The notes beneath the pieces were generated by a model. It worked only from the letters and a program-made list of their open reading frames with translations, searched no databases and was not told the DNA's origin. Both the position numbers and the translations under genes were made by a program. From a virus (taxonomy: Duplodnaviria > Caudoviricetes), in the IMG/VR virus record IMGVR_UViG_3300029288_000066, positions 96,001 through 160,000 of that record: 64,000 bases of DNA; one strand, given 5' to 3'. Positions 19,166 to 59,603 of this stretch are shown one piece after another (position 1 is the stretch's first letter; each line of letters starts with the position of its first letter).

Positions 19166-19238
19166 TAGAAATGATTGGATTTGAACCAACGACCTTTTCC
19201 ATGTCACGGAAACGCTCTGCCAACTGAGCTACACTTCT
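19166..19238 (-). tRNA. tRNA-Val(GAC)
   Basis: Cloverleaf; anticodon arm TTTCC-GTGACAT-GGAAA. Confidence 0.9.
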
Positions 19239-19240
19239 AT

Positions 19241-19425
19241 AGTAAGAGTCCGAAGTCTTTTTGCCCTTCCTCTTATCCATTCCGCCACAGAATGGCTTAA
19301 GCCTCCAGGGGATGACCGCTGACTGAAGGACTCTCTAGACCCCGTATATCAGCTTTTACATTTTAATTTAAGTGACGGTTTAAACTTATAAATGTCACTT
19401 ATAAATATGTAAAAGTTTTGGGTTG
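19241..19425 (-). ncRNA. Unidentified structured region (two long hairpins) inside tRNA operon
   Basis: GAGTCC/GGACTC-closed hairpin with CCATTCTG/CGGAATGG tip; adjacent CTTTTACAT..TAAGTGAC/GTCACTTA..ATGTAAAAG inverted repeat. Confidence 0.45.
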
Positions 19426-19500
19426 TGGAAACACTTGGATTCAAACCAAGGACCCTCTGGTTGTAGGCCAGATGCTCTAAATCAGCTGAGCTATGCTTCC
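19426..19500 (-). tRNA. tRNA-Val(TAC), C33 variant
   Basis: TCTGG-CCTACAA-CCAGA. Confidence 0.88.
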
Positions 19501-19508
19501 GAAATTAG

Positions 19509-19581
19509 TGGGAGTGGAGGGAATCGAACCCCCTAAAAATTGGATGTAACCCAACTGCCCCAGCCGTTAGACGCCACTCCC
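19509..19581 (-). tRNA. tRNA-Val(TAC)
   Basis: GTTGG-GTTACAT-CCAAT; GGTTCGATTCC T-arm. Confidence 0.82.
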
Positions 19582-19590
19582 GTAAAAAAA

Positions 19591-19943
19591 ATAAGATGAG
19601 CATAGCCAGAGTTCTGTTTTATTTTAGCATTTGTCTGGCAAAATGACTCGTCAAACTGCCGTTAGCCTCTACCAGGTCATTATAGAATTGAAGGTTCCCA
19701 TTCTAGACCCATTTGAGTTGCACACCGCCATTTGGCTATTTATTTAAAATAAACGTTGCACCAGTAATAACGATTGTAATTCGTGGCTTTCGGGTTACTG
19801 ATTTATTTGGCGCACTCTAACCCATTTTTCTATTTTGATGCCAATCCTAACAACTTTAACATTACAATCTTCTGATTCCTTCTTAATGATGTGCTCTGAG
19901 CTTCCTCATGTATTAATTACATGCGCTAAATCCTCTTTCTTAT
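19591..19943 (-). ncRNA. rnpB: RNase P RNA
   Basis: P4 strands GAGGAAGCTCAGAGC and ACAGAACTCTGGCTA; P3 CATGTA/TACATG; P2 TTTAGC/GCTAAA; about 350 nt. Confidence 0.85.
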
Positions 19944-20814
19944 TTTTATTAATTTTCCATCGTTTTTTTTGACAGTTATCCGAACAAAATCTTTTATGAT
20001 TATATTCTGTGTTAAATTTTTTCCCACAAAACCCACAAGTTCTATTTAAATAACTTTCTTTTACTATTGTTTCCCATTTGTGATTATAACATACAACTGG
20101 ACTTATTCCGATAAAATTTAAAAACTCAAAAACCTTTTTATTTGGTATTATAATTCTATTGGTACTCTCTTTTAAATAGGCATCAAACTCATAAAAATTC
20201 AATTTTTCAATTAAAACTTTATTATCTTCTTTGGAAAATGAATCAGTGCAAAAAACAGCCCCAACCTGATTATCTAAAGTCCCATCCCCTAAATACCAAT
20301 GCAGAACAACGGTTCTGTTAAGTTCTATATCTTTGGGAACTATTTTTTTTCCATTTGGATACCACTTTTCTCTTAATTTAGTAAAACACTTATTTGCTCT
20401 TGATGTTATAGTAAAATAATCATTCCCGTTGCTATATCCACTATGCCCTTTTCCGCTGTACTGTGACAACTCAAATCCAAGTTGTTCTGCTAAAAAATCA
20501 ATGTATTCTTTAAAAACACAAGAATGAGTAAAAGATGAATTTTGGTTATTGATTATTCTTTTGCAATGTCCATCAGAAAGTAAAGACCCATTTATAACAT
20601 CTAAGTCATTTTTTGTCAAAACTATTTCTTCTAAATTCTTTTTTGACTCATCTGAACACCTTAAAGAACAAAATCTGTTTGCCTTATGTTTCCTTTTTAG
20701 AAATTCAGCTCCACAAATTTCACATCTTCCTTTAATATAATATTCATAACCAGTACCGCTTTTACGTTTTTTTTTGTAAGAACCATCTTTTGTTATTTCG
20801 AAATCTCCTATCAT
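19906..20814 (-). CDS. LAGLIDADG homing endonuclease with zinc-finger termini
   Basis: INGSLLSDG and HWYLGDG motifs; CxxC...FCSxxC at both ends. Confidence 0.88.
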   Translation of the reverse strand: MIGDFEITKDGSYKKKRKSGTGYEYYIKGRCEICGAEFLKRKHKANRFCSLRCSDESKKNLEEIVLTKNDLDVINGSLLSDGHCKRIINNQNSSFTHSCVFKEYIDFLAEQLGFELSQYSGKGHSGYSNGNDYFTITSRANKCFTKLREKWYPNGKKIVPKDIELNRTVVLHWYLGDGTLDNQVGAVFCTDSFSKEDNKVLIEKLNFYEFDAYLKESTNRIIIPNKKVFEFLNFIGISPVVCYNHKWETIVKESYLNRTCGFCGKKFNTEYNHKRFCSDNCQKKRWKINKNKKEDLAHVINT

Positions 20815-20889
20815 ATATTTATTCTTTTATATAAATATATACAAAAAAGGAGAAAAAACAAAATTATTAAAAATAATGTTTCAAACAAC

Positions 20890-21132
20890 TTATTTTCTCA
20901 TCAGAATCCCACCCCTCCAGGTCAAACCTTTTCCCCAGTAATACTTTCCATCCTTTGACATTGCCCAAACATTCATGGCCTCATCCATGTATACTGGAAG
21001 ATTTTCAAATTGCTCCATGGCAATTTTTGTTTTTGTTCTTCTTCTAAAAATTCTGTTGGCAAATCTTTTATCTTTTTTTTCAGACCCCCCACCAATGCCA
21101 AAAATGGGAGTTTTTCTTCTTGAGTTGCTCAT
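20890..21132 (-). CDS. Small basic hypothetical protein (MSNSRRKTPI...)
   Basis: Likely start at 21132; K/R-rich. Confidence 0.7.
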   Translation of the reverse strand: MSNSRRKTPIFGIGGGSEKKDKRFANRIFRRRTKTKIAMEQFENLPVYMDEAMNVWAMSKDGKYYWGKGLTWRGGILMRK

Positions 21133-21229
21133 GTTTTCTAAATTTAAAAATTTAAAAGACCGCAGAGCTCCTTCCATTAAAATAACTTTTCATGATAATT
21201 TCTTTTTTATAAATATTTTTAAAAAACTG

Positions 21230-21301
21230 TTGTTCTGCAGGGACTCGAACCCCGACTATCTTCATCCAGAGTGAAGCGTGTTGCCATTACACTACAGAAC
21301 A
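21230..21301 (-). tRNA. tRNA-Gln(CTG)
   Basis: CTTCA-CTCTGGA-TGAAG. Confidence 0.92.
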
Positions 21302-21306
21302 ATTTG

Positions 21307-21386
21307 TACCCTCCGCAGGACTCGAACCTGCAATTTCAGCTCCAATTACGATTACAAAGTTCGTAGCTTTGCTCGGCTAGGAAGGC
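21307..21386 (-). ncRNA. Atypical D-armless tRNA-like RNA with ACG (Arg) anticodon arm and 23-nt variable region
   Basis: Acceptor GCCTTCC/GGAGGGT, CAAAG-CTACGAA-CTTTG, GCAGG-TTCGAGT-CCTGC. Confidence 0.65.
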
Positions 21387-21391
21387 ATTTG

Positions 21392-21465
21392 TGACCCTTG
21401 AGGGATTCAAACCCCCAACCCCGAAATCCGTAGTTTCGTGCTCTATTCAGTTGAGCTAAAAGGCC
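21392..21465 (-). tRNA. tRNA-Arg(ACG)
   Basis: CGAAA-CTACGGA-TTTCG. Confidence 0.9.
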
Positions 21466-21470
21466 GTTTG

Positions 21471-21543
21471 TGGAACTGGGTGTCTTCGACACACCGACCC
21501 ATTGCTGTTCAGACAATTGCTCTTCCAACTGAGCTACAGTTTC
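21471..21543 (-). tRNA. tRNA-Phe(GAA), C37 variant
   Basis: ATTGT-CTGAACA-GCAAT; T-loop GTCGAAG. Confidence 0.78.
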
Positions 21544-21551
21544 TTGTTTTG

Positions 21552-21625
21552 TGGAACCTCCCAGATTTGAACTGGGGCAAACCTGGATTTTCGGTCCAGT
21601 GCTCTACCAACTGAGCTAAGGTTCC
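21552..21625 (-). tRNA. tRNA-Phe(GAA), C33 variant
   Basis: CTGGA-CCGAAAA-TCCAG. Confidence 0.85.
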
Positions 21626-21724
21626 ATTAATTCTCAAATCTGAGCGGCTGGGTAGGTAGCATTTTGCATACACCACTCAAACTTGAGAATAATTTTTAAT
21701 CACAACATGTCAAAGACCTTGATG

Positions 21725-21800
21725 TTGCCTCACTAGGATTCGAACCTAGACATGCTTTTTCCGTCAAAGGGAAACGTGCGGCCAATTACACTATAAGGCA
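21725..21800 (-). tRNA. tRNA-Gln(TTG)
   Basis: TTTCC-CTTTGAC-GGAAA. Confidence 0.87.
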
Positions 21801-21805
21801 ATTTG

Positions 21806-21878
21806 TGGAGATAGCAGAACTTGAATCTGCGACTTTCACGTCTTCAGCGTGACACTCTACCATCTGAGTTACATCTCC
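21806..21878 (-). tRNA. tRNA-Phe(GAA)
   Basis: TCACG-CTGAAGA-CGTGA. Confidence 0.9.
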
Positions 21879-21899
21879 ATTATTTAAAGAACTTTCTTG

Positions 21900-21973
21900 C
21901 TATTCTGCCTGGGCTCGAACCAGGACTCTTTTGAACCAAAATCAAACGTGTTTGCCAATTACACCACAGAACA
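21900..21973 (-). tRNA. tRNA-Gln(TTG)
   Basis: TTTGA-TTTTGGT-TCAAA. Confidence 0.9.
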
Positions 21974-21989
21974 ATATTTTAAAGAACAT

Positions 21990-22024
21990 AAAAAAACCCC
22001 AGGGTTTTTGACCTTGGGGTTTTC
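21990..22024 (-). terminator. Attenuator terminator, Gln/Phe/Arg/Val operon
   Basis: ACCCCAAGG-TCAAAAAC-CCTGGGGT + T-tract; 5' arm complementary to GACCTTGG in leader ORF. Confidence 0.85.
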
Positions 22025-22043
22025 ATTAAATTATATATTTAGT

Positions 22044-22139
22044 TTAACGACATAACACAGCCAAGGTCTTTAGTGCTTGTTGCACAAAAAACACCACCTG
22101 AAAAAAGCGCTGACTTGATATGTTTGTTAAATTTTTCAT
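22044..22139 (-). CDS. Attenuator leader peptide MKNLTNISSQRFFQVVFFVQQALKTLAVLCR
   Basis: 12 consecutive Q/R/F/V codons; between promoter and terminator. Confidence 0.85.
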   Translation of the reverse strand: MKNLTNISSQRFFQVVFFVQQALKTLAVLCR

Positions 22140-22150
22140 TACTTTCTTTT

Positions 22151-22216
22151 TTATTTAAATAGTTCAATTTTTTACTTTCTACGCAAAGATACAAAAAAAG
22201 TTACATTAAATGCAAG
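22151..22216 (-). promoter_or_regulatory. tRNA-operon tandem promoter repeat, copy 1 (TTGCA..TATCTTTG host-type plus TATTTAA late-type)
   Basis: Near-identical to 43921-43985 and 59538-59603. Confidence 0.8.
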
Positions 22217-22243
22217 AAAAAATCAAATTATTTTTATTTTATT

Positions 22244-22546
22244 TTATTTTGAGTCGTGTTTTTTAGCAATAGCTGGCGTCTTCATTTTCATTATTTGTCC
22301 AGCATTTGTTCTTCCATCATAGTCAACATCTACTACAATACTGCCACATTCAGTACACCATCTTGCCACTTGAGAACTTCCGCCATAAGTGGATTCTGCT
22401 TCTAATATCACAATTAATTTGTGATTTCCTTTTAAACATTCTTCCATAATTTCACTTTTATATTTTATTACACTTTTCCTGATGCTTGGTATCAGTCCAA
22501 CATTTATCAAACTCTTCACAATTCCTGCAGTGGTCAATGTATTCAT
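22244..22546 (-). CDS. Hypothetical protein (start may be 22447)
   Basis: ORF track. Confidence 0.55.
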   Translation of the reverse strand: MNTLTTAGIVKSLINVGLIPSIRKSVIKYKSEIMEECLKGNHKLIVILEAESTYGGSSQVARWCTECGSIVVDVDYDGRTNAGQIMKMKTPAIAKKHDSK

Positions 22547-22602
22547 CTCCTATAACACCAAATAAATGCAATATATCTTGCATTGCATATCTTCGGTCAC
22601 CC

Positions 22603-22896
22603 TCACTCATCCCGTAAAGCCATTAATATTCCTTTAAGCACCTCCTTTTTGCTCAACTCATACATAAATTCAATCCTATAATATGGTTCTGTGCTCATTG
22701 TTGGAGTTGAATAGTGGACAAGCTTAAATAGAACAATATCTCTATTTTCAATGCTATCACATTTAACTGAACACACATCGCAGCCATCAACATTATAGCC
22801 GCTTTCTTTCATGTATTCTTTTATTTGTTGGCGTAAGTCTGTTTTTTCATTTATTACCACCAAACCAAAATCTTTTTTAATGTCACTGTTTTCCAT
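22603..22896 (-). CDS. Hypothetical protein
   Basis: ORF track. Confidence 0.6.
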   Translation of the reverse strand: MENSDIKKDFGLVVINEKTDLRQQIKEYMKESGYNVDGCDVCSVKCDSIENRDIVLFKLVHYSTPTMSTEPYYRIEFMYELSKKEVLKGILMALRDE

Positions 22897-22903
22897 ATTA
22901 TAG

Positions 22904-23185
22904 TTATGCACAATTAAAACGTATATGAAAGTAATGCTGTGCTATGAATCCATCTTTTACTTTCATAAAAAAAGTTATCTCGTAATTTGGATTTAAATTT
23001 TTTGAACAATAGTGATTATATAATAAATCGTGCATTCTTTTCAAATCGTAATCTATTATAACATCTCCTTCTATATCCATTTCGTGTCCGCAAGAACAAG
23101 TCGTGTTAAATCCATTATCCCTTAATAATTTTACGATTTCTCTTACGGGCTCTTCAATATTTTCTTCGTACCAATTCATATTCAA
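22904..23185 (-). CDS. Hypothetical protein (TTCSCGH motif), within attC-like cassette
   Basis: ORF track. Confidence 0.65.
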   Translation of the reverse strand: MNMNWYEENIEEPVREIVKLLRDNGFNTTCSCGHEMDIEGDVIIDYDLKRMHDLLYNHYCSKNLNPNYEITFFMKVKDGFIAQHYFHIRFNCA

Positions 23186-28735: not shown

Positions 28736-30166
28736 TTAACGATTTCTTTTCATTTTTAATTCTCTTTGAGCCTCTCTTTCCTGAGTTTTCTTCTTTTCCA
28801 ATCTTCTTTCTTTAAAGGTAGGTCCAGAGTTTTTGTCCTTTATGTTTAATAAAGGCTTTAGTCTATCAATAATGGTAGCAGTCGGCTCAATAGCCGCTTC
28901 AATCATCTTTGAGCTTTTATACGAATTCGGAGCCTCATCTATAGTGCCACGCACAACCGAAGTAGAATATATTCCTTCCATTTGTTTTCTAAAAGTATCC
29001 ATGTCAAGAGTCTCTTTTGCTTTTGTTCTTGACATGCATCTTCCAGCCCCATGAGGTGAAGAAAAATTCCACTCAACATTTGATTTGCCTTCGCAAACCA
29101 ATATTCCATCTCTCATATTGAATGGGATAATCATTCTCTCTCCAACATAAGAACGGATAGCACCTTTACGAATAATAAAATCCCTAAAGTCAATAAAATT
29201 ATGGATACTTTCTATTTTATCAACTGGGATAATTCCTCCTAATATATTACAAACAATATTAAGCATCATTTCTCTGTTGAACTGTGCGTATTTTTGGGCG
29301 ACAAGCATATCAATAAGATATTCAAAAGCAGCGTTTCCTTCCAAAAATTCCATTCCTTTAACATCAAAATCGAAATCAAGGCCTAATTCTTTTTTTGCCT
29401 CAGAAATTAAAGAAGAAATCTTTGATTTATCTTCAGTGTTTTTTGTGATTTCTTCAATTTTGGCTCTTAAAATGTCGTTTCTGTTGTGGTCAAGTCCCTT
29501 CTTTGCCTTGTCCTGGTGATATTCACAAATCATTTTTCCAAAATTTCTTGACCCAGAGTGAATAGTTACCCAAACATCCCCACAACTATCTGATTTTGAG
29601 ACTTCTATAAAGTGATTGCCCCCACCGAGAGTTCCAATTGACAACTCAGCACGATTTGGCTTCATTCCAATCTTCTTACATAAAGCTCCAAAATCTTTAT
29701 AATCGTATTTACTGTAAGAATAGTTAGTTCCAAATTTTACATTATAAGCCCTAATAAAGGCCAGCATTTCATTATTAAGCACTTCCCAATGAAAGTATTT
29801 ATCAAATGAAAATTTATCATTAAAATTGAATTTAAATTCTTTTTCGTGAGTATTAATTCCCATAGGAACGTCTCTTCTTAATCTATCATCGAATTCTTTT
29901 AAAGTAATGGTTAATTTGCTACCAATGTTTGCTGATAGCATACCGCAGCCTATATCCACAGAGACGACATTAGGAATTATTTTAATTCCCATAGGCATTG
30001 TAAATCCAACACAACTTCCCTTCCCTGCGTGTCCGTCTGGCATTACAACAACTCTATTATCGAATGCAACATGACTAATCATCCTATAAACTTGATTAAT
30101 CATTTCCTGTTCAAACTCATCAATTGTTAAATATGCCGTTGTAAATTTCCCCTTAAGCTCTATCAT
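28736..30166 (-). CDS. rtcB: RtcB RNA ligase
   Basis: MPDGHAG, VDIGCG, GTLGGGNHFIE, HSGSR, HN, HGAGR. Confidence 0.95.
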   Translation of the reverse strand: MIELKGKFTTAYLTIDEFEQEMINQVYRMISHVAFDNRVVVMPDGHAGKGSCVGFTMPMGIKIIPNVVSVDIGCGMLSANIGSKLTITLKEFDDRLRRDVPMGINTHEKEFKFNFNDKFSFDKYFHWEVLNNEMLAFIRAYNVKFGTNYSYSKYDYKDFGALCKKIGMKPNRAELSIGTLGGGNHFIEVSKSDSCGDVWVTIHSGSRNFGKMICEYHQDKAKKGLDHNRNDILRAKIEEITKNTEDKSKISSLISEAKKELGLDFDFDVKGMEFLEGNAAFEYLIDMLVAQKYAQFNREMMLNIVCNILGGIIPVDKIESIHNFIDFRDFIIRKGAIRSYVGERMIIPFNMRDGILVCEGKSNVEWNFSSPHGAGRCMSRTKAKETLDMDTFRKQMEGIYSTSVVRGTIDEAPNSYKSSKMIEAAIEPTATIIDRLKPLLNIKDKNSGPTFKERRLEKKKTQEREAQRELKMKRNR

Positions 30167-30422: not shown

Positions 30423-31505
30423 ATGTTATTAACTACACACTGTATGGTGACTATATATTCAAGTAGAATAAAAAACTACTATAATTCTATAGGATATGAA
30501 TGCAAAATTCATGATAAAATTAAAGTTAAAATAGAGCACATATTTAAAACTGTTAGAGGGAAGGTTGATGTCAAGTGCGACTACTGCGATAAAATACAAA
30601 AAATAAAATATTCGAAATTTTTACGTAGTACGAAGCATAATACATGCAAATATGCTTGCTGTAACTCTTGCGGCGGCCTAAAATCAAAAGAATTTTTAAA
30701 TCAGAATTTTAATGTTATTAATGTAAGTCAACTTGAGTCTGTTAAGAATAAGAAAATAATAAAAAGTCAGCAGGCATATGGAGTTAACAACGTAAGCCAA
30801 TCAAAAATAATACAAAATAAAGTTAAAAGAACAAAGAAAAAAAGATATGACGATGAAAATTATGTTAACATCAAAAAGATAAAAGAAACTAAATTAAAAA
30901 GATATGGAGACCAAAATTATGGAGCATTTGGCAGTATTTACTATAATAAAAAAATAAAAGAAAAATATGGAGACATAAATCCGAGCAACACACCAGAGGC
31001 AAGACAAAAGTCAAAAAACACATCAATTAAAAATTATGGAGTTGAGTATCCTTCTCAAAGTAAAATCATAAAAGACAAAACTGCAAAAACAAACATAGAA
31101 AGATATGGAGTTGTAGCTCCATTACAAAACTCAGAAATATTTAGCAAAAATCAAAAAAACGCTTTTAAATTAAAATTACACAAAGAGACTGGCCTTTATT
31201 ATAGAGGAACATATGAAAAACATTTTTTGGATTATTGTTTTATCCAAAACATTGATGTTGCCCCTGGGTTACCTATGTCATATTTTTATAAAGACAAAAT
31301 GAAAGTTTATCATTCTGATTTTTATTTAAAGCAATATAATTTAATAATAGAGATTAAAAGCAAATATTATTACGAAAAATATTTAGAAAGAAATTTGGCC
31401 AAACAAAAAGCTTGTATAAAACAAGGCTATGATTTTATTTTTATAATAGATAAAAACTATGAGTGTTTTGAAAATATTTTAAATAAAGTTTCTAATTTAC
31501 CTTAA
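30423..31505 (+). CDS. Putative homing endonuclease, PD-(D/E)xK with (K/R)YGV repeats
   Basis: Repeated KYG/YGV..SQ units; YRGTYE, YHSDFY...IIEIKS. Confidence 0.75.
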   Translation: MLLTTHCMVTIYSSRIKNYYNSIGYECKIHDKIKVKIEHIFKTVRGKVDVKCDYCDKIQKIKYSKFLRSTKHNTCKYACCNSCGGLKSKEFLNQNFNVINVSQLESVKNKKIIKSQQAYGVNNVSQSKIIQNKVKRTKKKRYDDENYVNIKKIKETKLKRYGDQNYGAFGSIYYNKKIKEKYGDINPSNTPEARQKSKNTSIKNYGVEYPSQSKIIKDKTAKTNIERYGVVAPLQNSEIFSKNQKNAFKLKLHKETGLYYRGTYEKHFLDYCFIQNIDVAPGLPMSYFYKDKMKVYHSDFYLKQYNLIIEIKSKYYYEKYLERNLAKQKACIKQGYDFIFIIDKNYECFENILNKVSNLP

Positions 31506-41768: not shown

Positions 41769-41941
41769 AAACTTATACGCAAACTTTTAAAAAAAGTTTC
41801 AATTTTATTTATTTATTAACGCAATTAGTTTTTTCGTTGCGTCATATGTACGAAAATAAAACCACCAATATTTATGATGGCCTTCAAAGATTTTCATTTT
41901 GTGATAATATATATCAATTTTCATAATTCAAAATTTATTTG

Positions 41942-42025
41942 TAGCTAAGAAAGGACTCGAACCTTCAAATTCTTACGAATCACGGTTTCTGAAACCGCTG
42001 CGTCAACCATTTGCGCCACTTAGCC
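41942..42025 (-). tRNA. tRNA-Leu(CAG)
   Basis: GCGGT-TTCAGAA-ACCGT, long variable arm. Confidence 0.9.
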
Positions 42026-42224
42026 ATTTATTATTCTATTCACAAAGTCAAAAAGTTCCATTCCTCTTATGAATTTATCTTTTGCTTCTTTATATGTCGG
42101 CGCATTAGTCACTGCTCCCCCACTCCATTGTACGATATTCCAACACCATCTTCATCTTGAACAATTAATACATCCCATTTTTCTATTTTCTCAACTCTAA
42201 TTTTCATAATTCAAAAATTATTTG

Positions 42225-42309
42225 TGACATCGGAGGAAGTCGAATCCTCATGAGTATTAACTCGATAGCCCCTCAAGCTATTGCGTATAACCAATTTCGC
42301 CACGATGCC
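42225..42309 (-). tRNA. tRNA-Leu(GAG)
   Basis: ATAGC-TTGAGGG-GCTAT, long variable arm. Confidence 0.9.
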
Positions 42310-42315
42310 ATTTTG

Positions 42316-42397
42316 TACCCCAAGAAAGACTCGAACTTTCACACCTTTCAGTACCAGGTTTTGAATCTGGGTCGGCTACCATTTTCGACATTGGGGC
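42316..42397 (-). tRNA. tRNA-Leu(CAA)
   Basis: CCAGA-TTCAAAA-CCTGG, long variable arm. Confidence 0.88.
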
Positions 42398-43267
42398 TTA
42401 TTTAAAAATTTTTTTTAATCTTATTAATTCTTTTATAACTTCTTCAGATTCTTTAGTTTTATGTTTGTTTTCAAATAATTCTATTTTTTTTAATAATTTT
42501 TTCAAACTTATTTGCGACTTTACACCCTTAGATTGATTTTTTATGTGTGGCACTAATCTACAATTCGCTGGATGTCTTATTATTATAGGATTTATTCCAA
42601 TTAAAAACCCATCTTTGACTGAAAAAACATGGTCTCTACTAACTCCTTTTAAATTATTCTTCTTATTTGTTGGACTATACCATCCGATTTCTTTAATAAG
42701 TTTTATATTAAATTCTTCTGGAAACATATTTAATGAAAATTTAAATTCACATTCTGCTCTGTAAAATTTATAATATTTTACCTTACATGATTCGCAAATT
42801 GTCTTAAACCCAAAAACTTCACCTCCTTTGCAAATTTTACAATATCTCATTTTTTTCTCCACGGGTTTCTTTTTATTTATTGCTTTTTTTATTTTTCTAC
42901 AATCCTCGCAAATTGCATTATTTAGAGAAGCTCTTTTGTTTATCAGAAGTTCTTTTTCACACTTCTTACAATAGGCCTTTTTTGTTTCTGAATAATTTAT
43001 TTTTCTCAGCTTATTGTTAAATGATGCTGAACAGGATTTAGAACAAAATATTTTATTTTCACTTTTCAAACTTTCAAAAATACTACCACAATTTTTACAA
43101 TTATTATGAACTTTACTTTCTTTTATTAAAGAAATTTTTAATCTGTGGAATTTTAACTGTACCGATTTTTTAGTTCTACCAATAGTTTTAGCTATTTCAT
43201 TACATGAAATATTGGATTTTGCCAACTCAACAATTTTATCTATTTCTTTTGTATCCCATTTTTTCAT
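42398..43267 (-). CDS. HNH homing endonuclease with HTH and zinc fingers
   Basis: SRDHVFS...HPANC...N.SK; CxxC motifs. Confidence 0.8.
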   Translation of the reverse strand: MKKWDTKEIDKIVELAKSNISCNEIAKTIGRTKKSVQLKFHRLKISLIKESKVHNNCKNCGSIFESLKSENKIFCSKSCSASFNNKLRKINYSETKKAYCKKCEKELLINKRASLNNAICEDCRKIKKAINKKKPVEKKMRYCKICKGGEVFGFKTICESCKVKYYKFYRAECEFKFSLNMFPEEFNIKLIKEIGWYSPTNKKNNLKGVSRDHVFSVKDGFLIGINPIIIRHPANCRLVPHIKNQSKGVKSQISLKKLLKKIELFENKHKTKESEEVIKELIRLKKIFK

Positions 43268-43342
43268 ACTATTTTTATTTATAAATAGTATAAAAAAAGA
43301 GTATTACAACCTTTTCGAACCTAAATTTCAAAGAACTTTTTG

Positions 43343-43416
43343 TACTCTACCTCGGACTCGAACCGAGAAAATCATGAGCCTAAATCATGTGGATATACCA
43401 ATTCTCCTAGTAGAGT
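43343..43416 (-). tRNA. tRNA-Leu(TAG), short variable loop
   Basis: CATGA-TTTAGGC-TCATG. Confidence 0.85.
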
Positions 43417-43421
43417 GTTTG

Positions 43422-43492
43422 AGGTCAGCAACGGAATCGAACCGTTCTATATGGGTTTGCAATCCACAACTTAACCAATCAGACAGCTGACC
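43422..43492 (-). tRNA. tRNA-Cys(GCA)
   Basis: Loop TTGCAAA, U73 discriminator. Confidence 0.85.
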
Positions 43493-43501
43493 TTATTTTT
43501 G

Positions 43502-43590
43502 TACCCCAGGAGAGACTTGAACTCTCACGCTACTATTATTTCGCCTCGGATTTTAAGTCCGATATGTACTACCAATTTCATCACTGGGGC
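43502..43590 (-). tRNA. tRNA-Leu(TAA)
   Basis: TCGGA-CTTAAAA-TCCGA. Confidence 0.9.
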
Positions 43591-43826: not shown

Positions 43827-43907
43827 TTACGCAAAATCATACCACGTCAACTTGCTTTGGGAGCAATTGGCTAGTAAGAGGCATAAACACAAAGATATAG
43901 TTTTCAT
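43827..43907 (-). CDS. Attenuator leader peptide MKTISLCLCLLLANCSQSKLTWYDFA
   Basis: TTG TGT TTA TGC CTC TTA CTA run. Confidence 0.85.
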   Translation of the reverse strand: MKTISLCLCLLLANCSQSKLTWYDFA

Positions 43908-43995: not shown

Positions 43996-44607
43996 TTATT
44001 TTTTAAATAGCTGATTTACAATCTCTTCTTTTATTATATTTTTAATGATTTTTCTAGCCTCTTCAGTATTTCCATTTTTTTCTACACTTATAATCTCTAC
44101 ATTTTCTGGATTATAAACTATACAGTGATAAACTTTATCAACATCATTGAACTCGAACCCTTTTTTATATAATAACATAGCATCATAGCCCAACTTGCTC
44201 ATTGCACGCATAAACGCCTGGGGTGCTCCGTTATATTGTTCTACCCTTAAAGAGTGCCACACCTCATCCTCTGTATCACTATATTTTATTGCTTCATTTA
44301 TAGCCATTAACTTATCTGTTTCTATATCAGAACTCCAATTATTCGCATAATCTTCATCACTTATCATATCAAGAAACTTCTTCAAATCTCTTCTGTTTGC
44401 TTTAGAAGCGGACTTCATATTTGTTATTACTTTTCTTGGAGCTAAATTCACAGTATATGTAAGTTTTCCCCACATTGCAGCATTTTCTTTAGAATTTGTA
44501 AAATATATTCCAGGACCTTCAGCGTCAGGGACTCCAATTTTCCCTGCAAACTCATCTGAGAACTTCTCTATTTTAGAATTTGAACCGTGATAAAAGACTC
44601 CATTCAT
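43996..44607 (-). CDS. ADP-ribosyltransferase-like protein (ART-PolyVal-like)
   Basis: FYHGS, GPGIYFT, GYDA. Confidence 0.6.
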   Translation of the reverse strand: MNGVFYHGSNSKIEKFSDEFAGKIGVPDAEGPGIYFTNSKENAAMWGKLTYTVNLAPRKVITNMKSASKANRRDLKKFLDMISDEDYANNWSSDIETDKLMAINEAIKYSDTEDEVWHSLRVEQYNGAPQAFMRAMSKLGYDAMLLYKKGFEFNDVDKVYHCIVYNPENVEIISVEKNGNTEEARKIIKNIIKEEIVNQLFKK

Positions 44608-55024: not shown

Positions 55025-55981
55025 TTATAATTGTTTTCCTTTTTCGTATTGCTCCAATTCTTTTTTCCCAAGCATTATGTGATAATATCCTTCTGATAAT
55101 ACAGCTTTTTTCTTTGCTTCTAATTTATCTCTATCACGTTTTTGAAACCATTCTCCCTTCATTTCTATAACTAAATTTCTCTCTGGTAAATAAAAGTCTG
55201 TAACATGAATACTCTTTTCTCCTTCAAATTCATATTCTATTCTTAACGTTTCGTAGAAATACATTTCTTTTCTTTCATCCAAAACATCCATCATTCTTAG
55301 TTCATAAGAACTTCTGTAATAAACCTCCTTCCCATACCAAGTCGTGTGATATCCAGTTTGATATTTAGTATTTACATTTGGAATTGCTCTACCTTCAACA
55401 AACGCCAGTCTTAAAGACTTAGATGTTGTTCTTAAATTAATACCGTTCTTTTTAAAGAAAAAATGTGTTGTATTATACATTATCCCATATTCATTTCTTA
55501 TTTGAATCAGTGCTTTTTTATTTGTAAAATACTCTTTTGAAAGGAGTATTAAAGCATTTTGATTTGACACCTGTAAGTTTTTTTGTAAAACTCCCAATTT
55601 GTTAAACAGATTTTTGTATTGTATGAAAGAACTACATAAATTACAATATTTTTTTTTGTTTTCATTAGAAATTTCCACCCCACAGCTTAAACATATTTTT
55701 TTATCTCCTTTTTTTTCACACAAAGGTCTCGCAGATTTTCTACGATTTCTTTCTTCATCAGAAATATTACAATTATATCTTCCATTGTTTTTACCAGAAG
55801 TTTTTAATATTCTTTCAGTAGACTGTTTTCTTCCTCTTAATTTTTCAGACGCTCTTTCATAGGATTCTTCAGTTCTAAATTTTGATGAGTATGTTCTAGC
55901 GCACTCTCTTGAACAGAATTCTCCTGTGGAATACTTACTGTATTTTATAGCTTCTTTTTTATTACAACTTTTACATTTCAT
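55025..55981 (-). CDS. PD-(D/E)xK (TnsA-like) homing endonuclease
   Basis: YRSSYE, YE.LRI.Y, TDFYL...VIEMKG; N-terminal zinc finger. Confidence 0.8.
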   Translation of the reverse strand: MKCKSCNKKEAIKYSKYSTGEFCSRECARTYSSKFRTEESYERASEKLRGRKQSTERILKTSGKNNGRYNCNISDEERNRRKSARPLCEKKGDKKICLSCGVEISNENKKKYCNLCSSFIQYKNLFNKLGVLQKNLQVSNQNALILLSKEYFTNKKALIQIRNEYGIMYNTTHFFFKKNGINLRTTSKSLRLAFVEGRAIPNVNTKYQTGYHTTWYGKEVYYRSSYELRMMDVLDERKEMYFYETLRIEYEFEGEKSIHVTDFYLPERNLVIEMKGEWFQKRDRDKLEAKKKAVLSEGYYHIMLGKKELEQYEKGKQL

Positions 55982-56063
55982 AACAAACAAATTTACTATA
56001 AATATACAAAAAAATTCGAATATTCGATGCCAGATTAAAAATATTTCAAAGAACTTGTTTTTG

Positions 56064-56136
56064 TGACCCAGGCGGAGTATGATTCCGCAACCCCATCATT
56101 AAAAGTGATGTGCTCTACCAATTGAGCTACTGAGTC
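56064..56136 (-). tRNA. tRNA-Lys(TTT), aberrant T-loop
   Basis: CATCA-CTTTTAA-TGATG; T-loop ATCATAC. Confidence 0.85.
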
Positions 56137-56141
56137 TTTTG

Positions 56142-56214
56142 TGAACCAGGTGGGAGTCGAACCCACATCCTTCGATTTAAGAGACCGAAGCTCCACCAAT
56201 TAAGCTACTGGTTC
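56142..56214 (-). tRNA. tRNA-Lys(CTT)
   Basis: TCGGT-CTCTTAA-ATCGA. Confidence 0.9.
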
Positions 56215-56218
56215 ATTG

Positions 56219-56291
56219 TACTGCTGGAGGGACTCGAACCCTCAACCCACGGAGCAAAAATCCGTTGCTCTACCAATTAAGCTACAACAGC
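56219..56291 (-). tRNA. tRNA-Lys(TTT), G37/C38 variant
   Basis: ACGGA-TTTTTGC-TCCGT. Confidence 0.85.
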
Positions 56292-56301
56292 GAAATGTTT
56301 G

Positions 56302-56372
56302 TGCATTCAGTTGGAGTCGAACCAACCTCTGCGGGTTAAAAGCCCGTGGCGAAGCCGCTTTGCTATGAATGC
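56302..56372 (-). tRNA. tRNA-Lys(TTT)
   Basis: CGGG-CTTTTAA-CCCG. Confidence 0.85.
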
Positions 56373-56478
56373 ATTTTTACAAGTGAACTCACAACAATTT
56401 GCAGCTCACTAGTTACTGTTTTCGTTTACATTTAAATTTTTTCATTTTATTTTATCTTTTTTAATTTTTAACTCAAAT

Positions 56479-56514
56479 AAAAACCCCCCAACTCATTTCT
56501 GCGCTGGGGGGTTT
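56479..56514 (-). terminator. Attenuator terminator, Lys/Ile operon
   Basis: CCCCCCAGC...GTTGGGGGG + TTTTT; 5' arm complementary to GCTGGGAG in leader. Confidence 0.85.
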
Positions 56515-56534
56515 AAGGTTTTTGTTATTTACAA

Positions 56535-56618
56535 TTATGCAAAAATCTCCCAGCCACTAAGTTTTTTAATCTTAATGCTAATAGATTTCTTTATAATTAC
56601 AGTTAACAACATATTCAT
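56535..56618 (-). CDS. Attenuator leader peptide MNMLLTVIIKKSISIKIKKLSGWEIFA
   Basis: ATT ATA AAG AAA TCT ATT AGC ATT AAG ATT AAA AAA. Confidence 0.85.
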   Translation of the reverse strand: MNMLLTVIIKKSISIKIKKLSGWEIFA

Positions 56619-56701
56619 TTTATTTTAAATTGTCTGATTTTAATCAAACATAAATAGTTTCTTTTTTCCTTTATACGTATGAAACAAAAAAAGTTTCATT
56701 T

Positions 56702-57085
56702 TTATTCATTTATTTTTTTAAGTGCTTCAAAATATTGTTTCAATTCGTTTCGAAGAGTCATATATTCTTCATATTCTTCCAGCAGTTTTATTTTTGACTC
56801 TGCCAATGCTTTCAATTTAAAAGCTCTTGTTACAGGAGTATTGTCTTTTGCTTTTACATTTCCTTCTGCGTCAACATACAACTCTCTCCCGTCTACACAA
56901 AAATTGGTTTGAATATTGTATGTTCCTAATCCAGATAAAGAAGCACCAAGACTAATGCTTCCACTGCATATGGTACCAACCATGTTGTTTTCTTCTTCTT
57001 GCTTTGGAACAATGTCATATTCACTCTTAGAGAATTTCACAGACAATTCTATAAATCTCAAAACTTTTTCTATTTTCTTTTCCAT
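56702..57085 (-). CDS. Hypothetical protein
   Basis: ORF track. Confidence 0.65.
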   Translation of the reverse strand: MEKKIEKVLRFIELSVKFSKSEYDIVPKQEEENNMVGTICSGSISLGASLSGLGTYNIQTNFCVDGRELYVDAEGNVKAKDNTPVTRAFKLKALAESKIKLLEEYEEYMTLRNELKQYFEALKKINE

Positions 57086-57173
57086 AATATTTTTATTTAA
57101 TTTTATGAAAATATAAACAAAAAAATAATGAATATCAAATATTTTTTTTCACACTTAATCAAAGAACGTTTTG

Positions 57174-57258
57174 CTGCCGAAGGTGGATTCGAACCACATT
57201 TTAACCTGACCTATTTGTCCTGAGATGACCTTGCAAGGAAAACATCTCTGCTTCAACA
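57174..57258 (-). ncRNA. Atypical tRNA-like RNA (acceptor + T arm, non-canonical middle)
   Basis: TGTTGAAG/CTTCGGCA, GTGG-TTCGAAT-CCAC; GAGATG/CATCTC hairpin instead of D arm. Confidence 0.55.
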
Positions 57259-57264
57259 ATCTTG

Positions 57265-57338
57265 AGCCAACTGGAGGGATTCCAACCCCCGTAATCCGCA
57301 TTACAGGTGCGGCGCATCGAGCACTCTGCCACAGTGGC
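57265..57338 (-). tRNA. tRNA-Thr(TGT), C33 variant with bulged acceptor
   Basis: CCGCA-CCTGTAA-TGCGG. Confidence 0.78.
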
Positions 57339-57345
57339 TTTTCAC

Positions 57346-57422
57346 TGGAGCCGTAGGAGGGATTCGAACCCCCGACATCCTCATTACAAGTGAGGCGCTC
57401 TGGCCAACTGAGCTACAACGGC
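57346..57422 (-). tRNA. tRNA-Thr(TGT)
   Basis: CCTCA-CTTGTAA-TGAGG; encoded CCA. Confidence 0.93.
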
Positions 57423-57431
57423 ATTCTTTTG

Positions 57432-57503
57432 AGCCAATAGAGGGAATCGAACCCCCGAATTCCTCTTTACGAAAGAGGCGCAATACCACTATGCGATATT
57501 GGC
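57432..57503 (-). tRNA. tRNA-Thr(CGT)
   Basis: CCTCT-TTCGTAA-AGAGG. Confidence 0.9.
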
Positions 57504-57512
57504 ATTCTTCAG

Positions 57513-57584
57513 AGCCGACGAAGAGAATTGAACTCTTGACCTCTTCCTTACCAAGGAAGCGCTCTACCTCTGGGCTACGTCGGC
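57513..57584 (-). tRNA. tRNA-Thr(GGT)
   Basis: CTTCC-TTGGTAA-GGAAG. Confidence 0.92.
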
Positions 57585-57590
57585 AGGTTC

Positions 57591-57768
57591 TGTTTAACTG
57601 ATGGGATTCCAACCCACACGTCCTATAACCTGCATTTAATTACCGCACCGCAGCCGCCCTGTGCGAAAAAATTCGAGCCCCGTTAACTGACTAACCATTC
57701 CTCGAATGACGGGGCAAGCGTCGAGGTGTTTACGGTTTAGCGACTAGCAATTCCGCCACAGTTAAACA
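57591..57768 (-). ncRNA. 178-nt tRNA-like RNA with about 120-nt structured insert
   Basis: TGTTTAACTG/CAGTTAAACA stem, D arm GCG..CGC, T arm GTGGG-TTGGAAT-CCCAT. Confidence 0.65.
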
Positions 57769-57769
57769 T

Positions 57770-57846
57770 TGGGTGAAAGGTCGGCTTCGAACCGACAACC
57801 CTCTGAACCACAATCAGATACTCTAACCAATTGAGCTACAATCACC
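57770..57846 (-). tRNA. tRNA-His(GTG)
   Basis: TCTGA-TTGTGGT-TCAGA. Confidence 0.92.
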
Positions 57847-57850
57847 ATAT

Positions 57851-57983
57851 AAAAAAGGGGAAAAGTTAGAACAGGGTTTTTCATGTAAAATCCTGGAGTT
57901 TAACCAGTACCCATTGAATTAAAAGTCAATTGCTCAACACTGAGCTAATTTTACGAAGTAGCTGTTCAGATTGCCACCTTTTT
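57851..57983 (-). ncRNA. Scaffold (Y-RNA-like) ncRNA 2 carrying Lys(TTT)-like tRNA body
   Basis: GTGGCAATCTGAACAGCTACTTCG...CTGTTCTAACTTTTCCCC enclosing TAGCTCAG..GAGC, ATTGA-CTTTTAAT-TCAAT. Confidence 0.7.
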
Positions 57984-58016
57984 ATGTTTTCAATATTTTA
58001 AAGAACTTATTCTTAG

Positions 58017-58090
58017 GGTGTCGAACCAGATTCGAACTGGCGTTGACTAAGGTCACAGCTTAGCCGTAGAAACCAACACTACACCGACAC
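58017..58090 (-). tRNA. tRNA-His(GTG)
   Basis: CTAAG-CTGTGAC-CTTAG. Confidence 0.83.
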
Positions 58091-58092
58091 AG

Positions 58093-58177
58093 AAGGGGAG
58101 GAGGGATTCGAACCCCCGTAAACCCGAAGGCACTAACGTTAACAGCGTTCCGCTCTGACCAACTGAGCTACACCCCC
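58093..58177 (-). tRNA. tRNA-Asn(GTT), long variable arm
   Basis: AACG-CTGTTAA-CGTT; GCC-TTCG-GGT variable hairpin. Confidence 0.85.
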
Positions 58178-58189
58178 ATGTAATTTTTT

Positions 58190-59035
58190 TTATTTTTTAT
58201 AATCTTTTAGCCATTTTCTAATTGCATTGTCAGAAACACCATATTTTTTGCCAACCGCACAATAATTTGTTTTTTTAATTTCTTGCATCAACTGTTCATA
58301 AGACGGCCTTTCAACCCTTCTTCTACTTTTTTTATAACAATCTATACATTCTTTTGCTTTTACATCCTTCTCTTTCCCACATTTGCAAACTCTTGTTTTT
58401 TCACTTTTCCTTTTAATGTTTCTAAAACAATATGTGTTTAACGTAGAATCACAATTTGGACATATGATTCTTAGATTTTTTAATCTATTATCCATATGAT
58501 TTCCATTAATATGGTCAAGAATTAAAATTAATTTATTTCCATTCCAATTTACATCCTGTCCACACAACTCACAACATTCTTTTTTTAAACCTTCATCATA
58601 CAATCTTTTTTTAAAATTAGAAGGTAAGCTTTTTCCAACTACAAAATAATATTCAATTGGGTTCTTTTTGCAACCAGTAATTACACCTTGTTCTTTTAAT
58701 CGCTTATACAGCTCTTTTTTTCCAGTAAAATGTGAAATGTCTACATTATATCGAGCAATATAGTTTTTTATTGTTGTAAAACTTGCAGATGCTGGATTAA
58801 TATTAAGATTTCTTAAAGCATCAGAATAAGAATATGCATTTTTAACAGCTTCTAGTATTTCTTTTTCTGAATATTTCCAAATTCCATACTTTGCAACTTT
58901 TAAACCAAGACGCTTTGCTTTATGAGCTACGGAATGTTTACTCTTGCCTAACTTTCGAGAACAATATATAGCACCATGCTCTTCATAATTGTTCTTAAGA
59001 AATAAAATTTCATTTTCTACCCATTTATATTTCAT
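58190..59035 (-). CDS. HNH homing endonuclease
   Basis: CELC...LDHINGNHMDNRLKNLRIICPNC; C-terminal HTH. Confidence 0.9.
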   Translation of the reverse strand: MKYKWVENEILFLKNNYEEHGAIYCSRKLGKSKHSVAHKAKRLGLKVAKYGIWKYSEKEILEAVKNAYSYSDALRNLNINPASASFTTIKNYIARYNVDISHFTGKKELYKRLKEQGVITGCKKNPIEYYFVVGKSLPSNFKKRLYDEGLKKECCELCGQDVNWNGNKLILILDHINGNHMDNRLKNLRIICPNCDSTLNTYCFRNIKRKSEKTRVCKCGKEKDVKAKECIDCYKKSRRRVERPSYEQLMQEIKKTNYCAVGKKYGVSDNAIRKWLKDYKK

Positions 59036-59101
59036 ATTGACATCTTTATTATAAATATGCCAAAAAATTATTTTTTCAATATTTCAAAGAACTTAATTTT
59101 G

Positions 59102-59188
59102 CGTTTCCTGTAAGATTCGAACTCACGATGGGGATTACTCCTCGTCAGGTTAACAGCCTGATGCCGTCGGCCACTTGGCTAAAGAAAC
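59102..59188 (-). tRNA. tRNA-Asn(GTT), long variable arm
   Basis: TCAGG-CTGTTAA-CCTGA. Confidence 0.87.
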
Positions 59189-59191
59189 ATA

Positions 59192-59349
59192 AATTCGGGG
59201 AAAAGGAGCAAAAGTGTTTTTTCTATACTCTAACCAACTGAGCTACGTGCTCCATTTTTTTTATTATTTGGGAGCACGACTGGACTCGAACCAGCGACCT
59301 TTTGTTATCAAGACAAATGCGAAGTAACTTTTACAATTGCCACCGAATT
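59192..59349 (-). ncRNA. Scaffold (YrlA-like) ncRNA 3 carrying circularly permuted tRNA
   Basis: Order: anticodon-like arm, T arm, acceptor 3' strand, linker, acceptor 5' strand, D arm, inside GTGGCAAT..TTACTTCG/CACTTTT..TTTTCCCC. Confidence 0.75.
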
Positions 59350-59375
59350 ATTTCAAAATTTTAAAGAACGATATA

Positions 59376-59410
59376 AAACAAAAAACCCAGACTCTTTTGG
59401 AATCTGGGTG
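59376..59410 (-). terminator. Attenuator terminator, Asn/His/Thr operon
   Basis: ACCCAGATTC-CAAAA-GAGTCTGGGT + TTTTTGTTTT; 5' arm complementary to GTCTGGGTG in leader. Confidence 0.87.
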
Positions 59411-59431
59411 GCTTTTTGTTTTCTTATATTT

Positions 59432-59521
59432 TTATTTTAAGATAGACATATTACACCCAGACACACATGTATTATTATGTTTGTTGGTCTTCGTGTTAAT
59501 ATGTATACTTAAAGCTAACAT
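59432..59521 (-). CDS. Attenuator leader peptide MLALSIHINTKTNKHNNTCVSGCNMSILK
   Basis: CAT ATT AAC ACG AAG ACC AAC AAA CAT AAT AAT ACA. Confidence 0.83.
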   Translation of the reverse strand: MLALSIHINTKTNKHNNTCVSGCNMSILK

Positions 59522-59537
59522 TTCAATATTTCCTTTT

Positions 59538-59603
59538 TATTTAAATAGTATGATTTTTTTACTTTCTACGCAAAGGTACAAAAAAAGTTACATTAAATGC
59601 AAG
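59538..59603 (-). promoter_or_regulatory. tRNA-operon tandem promoter repeat, copy 3
   Basis: Near-identical to copies 1 and 2 (TACCTTTG variant). Confidence 0.8.

Follow-up and report, generated by a model that had tools for sequence, protein, structure and literature searches.

In the 64,000-nucleotide (nt) window analyzed in this study, which covers bases 96,001–160,000 of the single 228,886-bp virus record IMGVR_UViG_3300029288_000066, transfer RNA (tRNA) genes form operons, each of which is probably controlled by ribosome-mediated leader-peptide attenuation that senses the decoding of its own codons. The evidence on these tRNA-operon attenuators is entirely in silico, and from it we infer leader translation, termination at the hairpin, and a read-through response to tRNA supply. 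The record has a GC content of 32.8% and a CheckV completeness estimate of 82%. ARAGORN identified 53 tRNA genes in the genome, 31 of them in the window, every one on the minus strand; Infernal yielded 56 tRNA hits genome-wide, all located in six minus-strand operons (C1–C6) that are sorted by amino acid, except a lone amber-suppressor tRNA without a leader. The original prediction, made on the window, had described four such operons, which is correct for this stretch; two further operons lie outside it, and the genome total is six.

All six operons have the same order of parts: a promoter box, a leader open reading frame (ORF) of 23–31 codons, a GC hairpin with a T-run, and the tRNAs. This layout had been predicted for the window, where it was seen at all four clusters on the minus strand, and the window leaders, expected to be 26–31 amino acids (aa) long, comprise 31, 26, 27, and 29 codons. 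At each of the six operons, the leader ORF lies 50–75 nt downstream of a conserved promoter box, and in the window units the A-rich 5′ untranslated region (UTR) ends in AACTATTTAA before the ATG-started leader ORF. The promoter box of C1 (22168..22215, minus strand, as are all C1–C4 features given below) contains the −7-like element TAtcTTTG with a TTG approximately 21 nt upstream; the box of C2 (43937..43984) is identical to it over 48 nt, and that of C4 (59555..59602) has one mismatch to both. The 48-nt box occurs in just three copies in the genome (C1, C2, and C4), each upstream of a leader. Leaders and hairpins had been said to share no sequence; with a common 48-nt box and 5′ UTR at C1, C2, and C4, that statement is therefore limited to the ORFs and hairpins. 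Among relatives, TA and TTTG of the TAnnTTTG element are invariant and the nn positions vary. TAnnTTTG with an upstream TTG fits the published Bacteroidota sigma-A promoter consensus, from which we infer that the box is a Bacteroidota-type promoter.

Within each leader, a run of codons matches the tRNA set encoded downstream, with decodability assessed by applying standard wobble rules to the anticodons of each cluster. The C1 operon (19165..21973) encodes four Gln, three Phe, Arg(acg), and three Val tRNAs, with a LAGLIDADG endonuclease ORF inserted, and its leader (22044..22139, 31 codons) carries the run QRFFQVVFFVQQ, of which 12 of 12 codons are readable by these Gln, Arg(acg), Phe, and Val tRNAs. 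The C2 operon (41941..43590) encodes Leu (taa, tag, caa, gag, cag) and Cys(gca) tRNAs with a 289-aa ORF inserted; in its leader (43827..43907, 26 codons), the run LCLCLLL uses the codons TTG, TGT, TTA, TGC, CTC, TTA, and CTA, corresponding to four Leu anticodons plus the Cys anticodon, and the chance that six Leu codons drawn at genome usage would cover TTA, TTG, CTC, and CTA is 0.035. For C3 (54332..56372), which contains four Lys, three Ile, and Met/Ile(cat) tRNAs together with inserted ORFs, 10 of the 12 codons in the run IIKKSISIKIKK of the leader (56535..56618, 27 codons) are readable by Ile(gat, tat) and Lys(ttt, ctt). The C4 operon (57266..59188) comprises two Asn, two His, and four Thr tRNAs, one tRNA with an odd anticodon loop, and an inserted 281-aa ORF. 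The run HINTKTNKHNNT of its leader (59432..59521, 29 codons) had been matched to His/Asn/Thr, which applies to nine of 12 codons; its Ile and Lys codons are read by the Ile/Lys tRNAs of C3, which lies downstream in the same orientation, and 12 of 12 codons fit when these are counted. The three Thr codons of this run (ACG, ACC, and ACA) represent one per Thr anticodon, so that all three anticodons are covered. Outside the window, a leader containing MGGYPSAIDADYGCGTGM precedes the minus-strand C5 operon (Asp, Gly, Ala, Tyr, Met, and Pro), and a leader containing SWSSRRRSSSR..SW precedes the minus-strand C6 operon (Ser, Arg(tct, cct), and Trp).

The match between leader codons and tRNA sets far exceeds chance expectation. 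Leaders C1–C6 have 14, 9, 12, 10, 13, and 13 codon matches to their own clusters and 1–7 to the other clusters, and of 720 permutations, the true leader–cluster pairing alone reaches the maximum (71 matches versus a mean of 26). The best 12-codon windows of the six leaders contain 12, 8, 10, 9, 9, and 11 decodable codons, respectively. With all six reading frames of the genome taken together, 1, 85, 14, 1, 80, and 2 of the 457,702 12-codon windows reach these scores, and of 1,053 small ORFs, each leader is alone or one of three in reaching its score. The predicted match of each leader run to its own cluster is thereby borne out both by permutation and as a genome-wide extreme. Codon choice within one amino acid follows the same division: in the window genome and all relatives, the Arg codons CGC/CGT (CGY) are found only in C1-type leaders, which precede Arg(acg), and AGG/AGA (AGR) only in C6-type leaders, which precede Arg(tct, cct), while CGH accounts for only 17% of Arg codons in the long ORFs of the phage. 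Of the 40 distinct anticodons encoded downstream of the six leaders in the window genome, 38 have a codon in their own leader.

Relatives were reached by two routes. The small ORF between C4 and C3 has a homologue that led to a 372-kb IMG/VR phage (G001) and to a 455-kb ENA contig, the tRNA content of which is identical over the 20-kb locus. Contigs of 1.3–90 kb came from a relaxed promoter-pattern scan of IMG/VR and JGI metagenomes and two more from further look-ups, giving a final set of 23 leader instances of six types on 10 contigs, with L038 added by hand; among contigs P0006, P0009, and P0010, those with DNA to examine showed no tRNA context. An automated pattern search for a small ORF, a hairpin with a T-run, and a tRNA recovered every leader, and its extra matches were only out-of-frame by-products. 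A first, stricter promoter pattern had no match in IMG/VR, single-protein searches with two genes upstream of leaders found no relatives, and the sole blastn match of the C1 leader region against GenBank phages was a tRNA-Gln of a Microbacterium phage.

In G001, all six operons are syntenic and each has a leader. The original prediction anticipated matching leaders at the remaining clusters, and they are present at the Asp/Gly/Ala/Tyr/Met/Pro and Ser/Arg/Trp operons; it also held that the leader frame and the codon–tRNA match would be conserved at homologous loci, as was found in the 23 instances. Frame, start, and stop of the leader are kept throughout, and residue order and terminator sequence drift. 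The C1 frame and run are kept in G001, L038, and L040, and the C2 run in G001, L050, and L052; homologues of the C3 leader were identified in G001, L052, L056, and L058. In four relatives, the C4 run has the same residue set in shuffled order, the variants among contigs being HINTKTNKHNNT, HINTNTHKHNTT, HINTTTTNKHNT, and IIHTITNNHKNTN. Substitutions in the runs remain in the set or enter it (A and L to V and Q in C1; I to A in C5). That leader codons would follow cluster content was likewise confirmed by the compact contig L054, in which the Asn, His, Thr, Lys, and Ile tRNAs form one block preceded by a leader, NIHITNTIQNKHKN, that mixes N, H, T, K, and I.

Hairpins in the window begin 9–20 nt after the leader stop and have folding energies of −15 to −24 kcal/mol before the T-run; overall, the terminators are GC hairpins of −15 to −27 kcal/mol followed by at least five T. 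The C1 terminator (21990..22024) is a hairpin with a T-run, and those of C2 (43772..43806) and C3 (56479..56514) reach −19.6 kcal/mol, again before a T-run, and −23.8 kcal/mol. The C4 terminator (59380..59409) was also recovered independently by a simple terminator pattern scan, which did not report the C3 or C1 terminator in the stretches scanned.

For the antiterminator, the terminator 5′ arm of each instance was scored for the best-pairing leader. Because terminator-arm columns in MAFFT alignments were offset between relatives, per-sequence duplexes were used. The segment complementary to the terminator 5′ arm that had been predicted in each window leader was found as a pairing of 7–10 bp, and in C1–C5 the best-pairing site is always inside the ORF, just past the run. 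In C1, GACCTTGG (22060..22068, ORF nt 72–80) pairs with CCAAGGT(C) of the 5′ arm; the window duplex has −10.4 kcal/mol and those of relatives −12 to −17, 0 of 19 other-type leaders pair as well, and dinucleotide shuffles gave p = 0.06 for the window and 0.002 for relatives. The C2 segment AATTGCTCCC (43858..43869, ORF nt 39–50) pairs with GGGAGCAGTT (−16.9 kcal/mol, shuffle p = 0.002), and the C2-type instance of L050 has GGTTGCTCTC versus GGGAGCGGTC, including an A-U to G-C double change. In C3, GTGGCTGGG (56548..56558, ORF nt 61–71) pairs with CCCAGCGC (p = 0.004). Four lineages have C3 terminators of unrelated sequence, and the pairing is kept by compensatory changes: the leader segments GGCTGGG, GAATGGG, GAAGGAG, and GAAGGGG, which occupy the same codons, complement their own arms CCCAGC, CCCATTC, CTCCTTC, and CCTCTTTC. 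Because the leader segment tracks its own terminator arm, the peptide shifts among SGWE, NEWD, DEGE, and CEGV. In C4, GTCTGGGTG (59453..59463, ORF nt 59–69) pairs with CACCCAGA(T) (p = 0.002), and the C4-type pair of L058 is GAATTCGGG/CCCGAATTC versus TCTGGGTG/CACCCAGA in the others; own pairs have −11 to −17 kcal/mol (−15 for the L058 duplex) and cross pairs −5 to −8. The C5 segment outside the window is CGGGTATGTTTA (ORF nt 46–59, minus strand, shuffle p = 0.01). With 15 of the 23 arms, every other-type leader pairs less well than the arm's own leader, and with five more, a single one pairs as well; shuffle p is at most 0.03 in 17 of 23 instances. This covariation is the strongest evidence for the putative antiterminators, and alternative pairing is thereby predicted for five of the six types.

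Under equilibrium folding with a ribosome mask, the structure flips only in C1 and C5. The C1 terminator has a probability of 0.05–0.12 when the A site is at F13–Q14 or F18–Q20 and ~0.9 elsewhere, and that of C5 has 0.03–0.12 up to codon 10 and 0.6–0.8 later. Folding of truncated transcripts was therefore applied, ending at the terminator loop, before the 3′ arm exists. In these folds, the 5′ arm of all 23 instances is paired with the upstream segment (probability 0.5–0.9) while the ribosome front is within the run, and this pairing drops to 0–0.4 one or two codons past the run. A switch between the mutually exclusive folds of the original prediction is thus modeled at equilibrium for C1 and C5, and not for C2, C3, C4, and C6; truncated transcripts show the expected sequestration and release of the 5′ arm in 23 of 23 instances. 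In the trp attenuator, the terminator is likewise the more stable structure and the antiterminator wins kinetically. The modeled geometry is the arrangement that attenuation would require, in which a ribosome in the run would leave the antiterminator free and a ribosome beyond the run would occlude it.

The position of the tRNAs also bears on the need for read-through. The distance from T-run to first tRNA is 16 nt in C1, 25 nt in C5, and 21 nt in C6, and 0–1 nt in G001 C6′ and L038; with gaps of 0–25 nt leaving no room for a promoter in several operons, tRNA expression there needs read-through. A GTTCTTTAAAATATTG motif follows five of the six attenuator terminators of the genome and is conserved in relatives. 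In the form GTTCTTT(A/G)AAATATTG, it is located on the minus strand at window positions 21987, 43760, 59369, 59092, 58006, 56054, 43336, and 21892 and at genome positions 177589 and 193805, and it also occurs 5–9 nt past several tRNAs, often ahead of inserted endonuclease ORFs or the GGTGGCAATTG element. The motif is missing where a tRNA abuts the T-run, so GTTCTTTAAAATATTG is unlikely to be an obligatory promoter; it could be a candidate processing, pause, or start site.

In the mechanism that we propose, host RNA polymerase would start at the Bacteroidota-type promoter and transcribe the short A-rich 5′ UTR and the ORF of 23–31 codons, the middle of which carries a run read by the tRNAs encoded downstream, with nearly each distinct anticodon of the operon sampled at least once. 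When decoding is fast, the ribosome would clear the run and cover the 7–10 nt segment, the GC hairpin and U-tract would form, and transcription would stop before the tRNAs. When any of these tRNAs is scarce, the ribosome would stall in the run, the segment would pair with the terminator 5′ arm, and the tRNA block would be transcribed. New tRNA would then lift the stall, producing a product-level homeostat.

Several observations weigh against this mechanism. The Ser/Arg/Trp (C6) type has no significant antiterminator among its instances (p = 0.54, 0.41, and 0.13), and at equilibrium the terminators of C2, C3, C4, and C6 are dominant for every ribosome position. For these four types, the switch rests on a kinetic co-transcriptional model with a crude mask that hides everything 5′ of the ribosome front. 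The gap between run and antiterminator is only 3–8 nt, so a stall on the last codons of the run would partly cover the antiterminator. Some leader codons fall outside the expected sets, namely Ser in C3 and Ser, Ile, Cys, and Thr in C5 of the window genome, one His codon in the Gln/Arg/Phe/Val run of the C1-type leader of L040, and four Asn codons in the C3 (Ile/Lys) leader of L058, the cognate tRNAs of which are in the preceding operon. The C2 leader resembles a lipoprotein signal peptide (LLLANC), there may be an internal start site where the GTTCTTTAAAATATTG motif is present, and amino-acid starvation would stall the ribosome too, with no relief by extra tRNA.

Some of these points are shared by an alternative that we consider unlikely, in which ribosome stalling is sensed but acts on RNA processing, stability, or Rho access instead of on intrinsic termination, the hairpin being mainly a processing or stability element. 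The absence of a significant antiterminator in the Ser/Arg/Trp type and the insensitivity of four terminator types to ribosome position at equilibrium would suit it, as would the location of GTTCTTTAAAATATTG immediately after the T-run and several tRNAs, which fits a processing site. However, the hairpins are canonical GC stems with T-runs, and five types carry a covarying complement of the exact 5′ arm, a feature required for a terminator/antiterminator switch but not for a processing signal.

It is very unlikely that the promoter, small ORF, and terminator are a separate unit, or a constitutively leaky terminator, with the tRNAs transcribed from another start such as GTTCTTTAAAATATTG. The conserved occurrence of this motif after five of six terminators is compatible with such an arrangement, and the promoter box does drive leaderless RNAs in L054 (tRNA-Met), L006, L042, and L053. 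Yet in G001 C6′ and L038 the tRNA follows the T-run by 0–1 nt with no motif, the motif after tRNAs and before inserted ORFs is not promoter-like, and both the match of run to tRNAs and the covariation of leader and arm would be left unexplained. Finally, it is scarcely credible that the small ORFs are functional peptides or chance ORFs in structured leader RNA with a coincidental resemblance to the tRNA sets: they are indeed short and unannotated, C2 reads MKTISLCLCLLLANC like a lipoprotein signal, and Ile, Lys, and Asn are common at 33% GC, but the pairing is the single best of 720 permutations with runs that are genome-wide extremes, relatives keep composition and not peptide order, and the C-terminal part varies freely in a way that keeps RNA pairing (SGWE, NEWD, DEGE, and CEGV in C3).

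If leader-peptide attenuation does operate here, its natural trigger might be the codon demand of an AT-rich phage, shut-off of the host, or host nucleases that cleave tRNAs. A broader and much more tentative proposal is that the six attenuators together form an inducible replacement of host decoding, with each operon almost silent until the host tRNAs that it matches run short and only the missing tRNA set then being made; RNA genes would here come under leader-peptide control for the first time, and the system might act as a sensor-coupled counter-defence. Depletion could arise, for example, from anticodon nucleases of the PrrC, PARIS, or retron type or from phage-driven host shut-off, and RtcB repair, transfer-messenger RNA (tmRNA), and the amber-suppressor tRNA would act alongside. 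An RtcB tRNA-splicing/repair ligase of 476 aa (PHROG 1075, E = 8.5e-118) is encoded 6.6 kb upstream of C1 (window 28736–30166, minus strand). The RtcB gene, the tmRNA call, and the suppressor tRNA fit a phage that rebuilds decoding and do not single out counter-defence, which would be just one of the possible uses of a sensor of decoding capacity.

The titles and abstracts of recent work describe T5 tRNAs as counter-defence against PARIS (PMC11464382), phage tRNAs in evasion of retron/PtuAB (PMC11555353), and anticodon-loop variants of phage tRNAs in counter-defence (PMC10264068). Like these, the tRNAs of the window phage, which also has the RtcB ligase, would replace host tRNAs lost in infection. 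The same titles and abstracts deal with the roles of tRNAs and make no mention of demand-sensing control of their transcription.

Leader-peptide attenuators of enterobacteria include thrL, ilvL/ivbL, leuL, hisL, trpL, and pheL. To our knowledge, the members of this class known so far have amino-acid biosynthesis enzymes or aminoacyl-tRNA synthetases as targets. The pheL leader peptide is described in PMC3082878. The phage units resemble enterobacterial attenuators in having a short leader with a regulatory codon run (the translation of which is presumed here), a terminator before the genes, an antiterminator overlapping the 5′ arm, and, according to the folding model, a ribosome position that picks the structure; as in thrL and ilvL, several amino acids would be sensed by one leader. 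They differ in being phage-borne with a Bacteroidota-type promoter and no Shine–Dalgarno sequence, and in sampling as many as six amino acids, with almost all isoacceptors of the operon represented. Furthermore, in the truncated folds most ribosome-free phage leaders have the 5′ arm already sequestered by the antiterminator, whereas in untranslated trpL regions 1 and 2 pair. Unlike enterobacterial attenuators, the phage leaders precede tRNAs and inserted homing-endonuclease ORFs rather than biosynthesis or synthetase genes, so the product itself would close the loop.

Among attenuators of the translation apparatus, the pheM leader of the Escherichia coli pheST operon controls phenylalanyl-tRNA synthetase. 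The phage leaders are similar to pheM in that attenuation would act on a component of this apparatus and respond to the decoding of cognate codons, but pheM controls a protein, the synthetase, and senses one amino acid, and we know of no action of pheM on tRNA genes. T-box riboswitches (RF00230) also couple tRNA status to terminator read-through via an antiterminator; unlike the phage leaders, they bind uncharged tRNA directly, require no translation, and control synthetase, biosynthesis, and transporter genes. A T-box or other known riboswitch was rejected on the basis of an Rfam scan of the whole window, which at the gathering threshold returned tRNA only.

Full-text literature searches found no paper in which tRNA genes, of phages or of cells, are controlled by attenuation, leader peptides, or upstream ORFs; the nearest hits were the pheL paper (PMC3082878) and the above papers on phage tRNAs as counter-defence. 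The phage system would therefore represent a known mechanism acting on a new target class, tRNA genes, with every structural hallmark identified in the sequence except the antiterminator of the C6 type. As the regulated product is the sensed molecule, such a circuit would be a direct homeostat for decoding capacity. If true, this would help to explain the timing of tRNA expression in large phages with near-complete tRNA sets; the leader codons would state the shortages that the phage expects and offer a handle on codon supply versus escape from tRNA-cleaving defence. The units are small, modular, and orthogonal in their runs, terminators, and covarying antiterminators, which might make them useful as codon-specific sensors of translation capacity. 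Relatives of 90–455 kb from several metagenomes share the design, which is likely to be a widespread, undescribed regulatory class.

Besides the leaders, the promoter box heads leaderless RNAs in relatives: one in G001 (L006:4200–4480, minus strand), a structured RNA of ~170 nt with a strong terminator at its end, and tRNA-like RNAs with long insertions in L042 and L053. The box therefore seems dedicated to stable-RNA genes. In L054 (4420–4534, minus strand), it stands directly (~12 nt) before tRNA-Met(cat), with neither leader nor terminator; thus the tRNA required by the start codon of every leader is ungated.

In C2 and C4, a conserved structured element of 170–250 nt is located between the terminator and the first tRNA (window 43595–43770 in C2 and 59189–59379 in C4, both on the minus strand; L008:13915–14164, L056:1376–1565, and L054:5149–5348). 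The flanks of the C4 element, GGTGGCAATTG..AGTTACTTCG and ACACTTTTGC..TTTTCCCCGAA, form a long helix that encloses an anticodon-like hairpin, a T-arm, a 3′ acceptor strand, an A-rich spacer, a 5′ acceptor strand, and a D-arm, and its predicted structure is a circularly permuted tRNA-like fold. RNAalifold gave 36 pairs for it, 13 with compensatory changes, and the acceptor helix is different in each relative; the anticodon-loop triplet is variable (TGA, ATG, and TTA). The C2 element scores as a tRNA body that lacks the acceptor stem (Rfam 30.5 bits, positions 7–64). These elements could be permuted or split tRNAs, decoys, or processing scaffolds in a phage that has RtcB.

Immediately before the first tRNA-Lys (window 56380–56445, minus strand), there is a second mini-ORF with many Lys and Arg (CGA/CGT) codons, which is also present in relatives (L003:10628–10690, L052:1090–1160, L056:4050–4115, and L054:4740–4815). 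Its peptide is MKKFKCKRKQ* in the window and ends in ..VKYKRKR* in three relatives and in KRKR* in L056, where the next tRNA is Arg(tcg), which reads CGA. A hairpin with no T-run follows the mini-ORF, which is kept even in L054, a contig with no separate leader for Lys. It may constitute a second, different gate or a processing signal.

In the C1-type leader of L038 (60–215, minus strand), an in-frame TAG takes the place of the CAA (Gln) codon of three relatives, and the conserved frame goes on past this TAG. Amber-suppressor tRNA(CTA) genes that have no leader are present in the window genome (196605–196678, minus strand) and in G001, which suggests recoding of TAG to Gln in this phage group.

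ORFs of ~280–360 aa lie within or near the tRNA arrays at window positions 19906–20814, 42398–43267, 55025–55990, and 58190–59035 (minus strand) and 30423–31505 (plus strand). Matches of ORFs in or near the arrays include LAGLIDADG (E = 7e-25), endonuclease I/DUF7487-like, helix-turn-helix-bearing, and homing-endonuclease PHROG proteins, which suggests that the arrays are shaped by traffic of homing endonucleases, with partial tRNA copies left behind. The gene immediately upstream of the C2 promoter (window 43996–44607, minus strand) matches ART-PolyVal, the ADP-ribosyltransferase domain of polyvalent proteins, with an E-value of 1.7e-7, just above the Pfam cut-off. Outside the window, ARAGORN called a permuted tmRNA (tmRNA*) with a tag peptide of 26 residues (genome 84078–84424, plus strand). 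In relatives, G001 has RF-1/PCRF-domain and RNA-ligase genes near its tRNA operons, and a PTH2 gene is present on the contig of a more distant relative.

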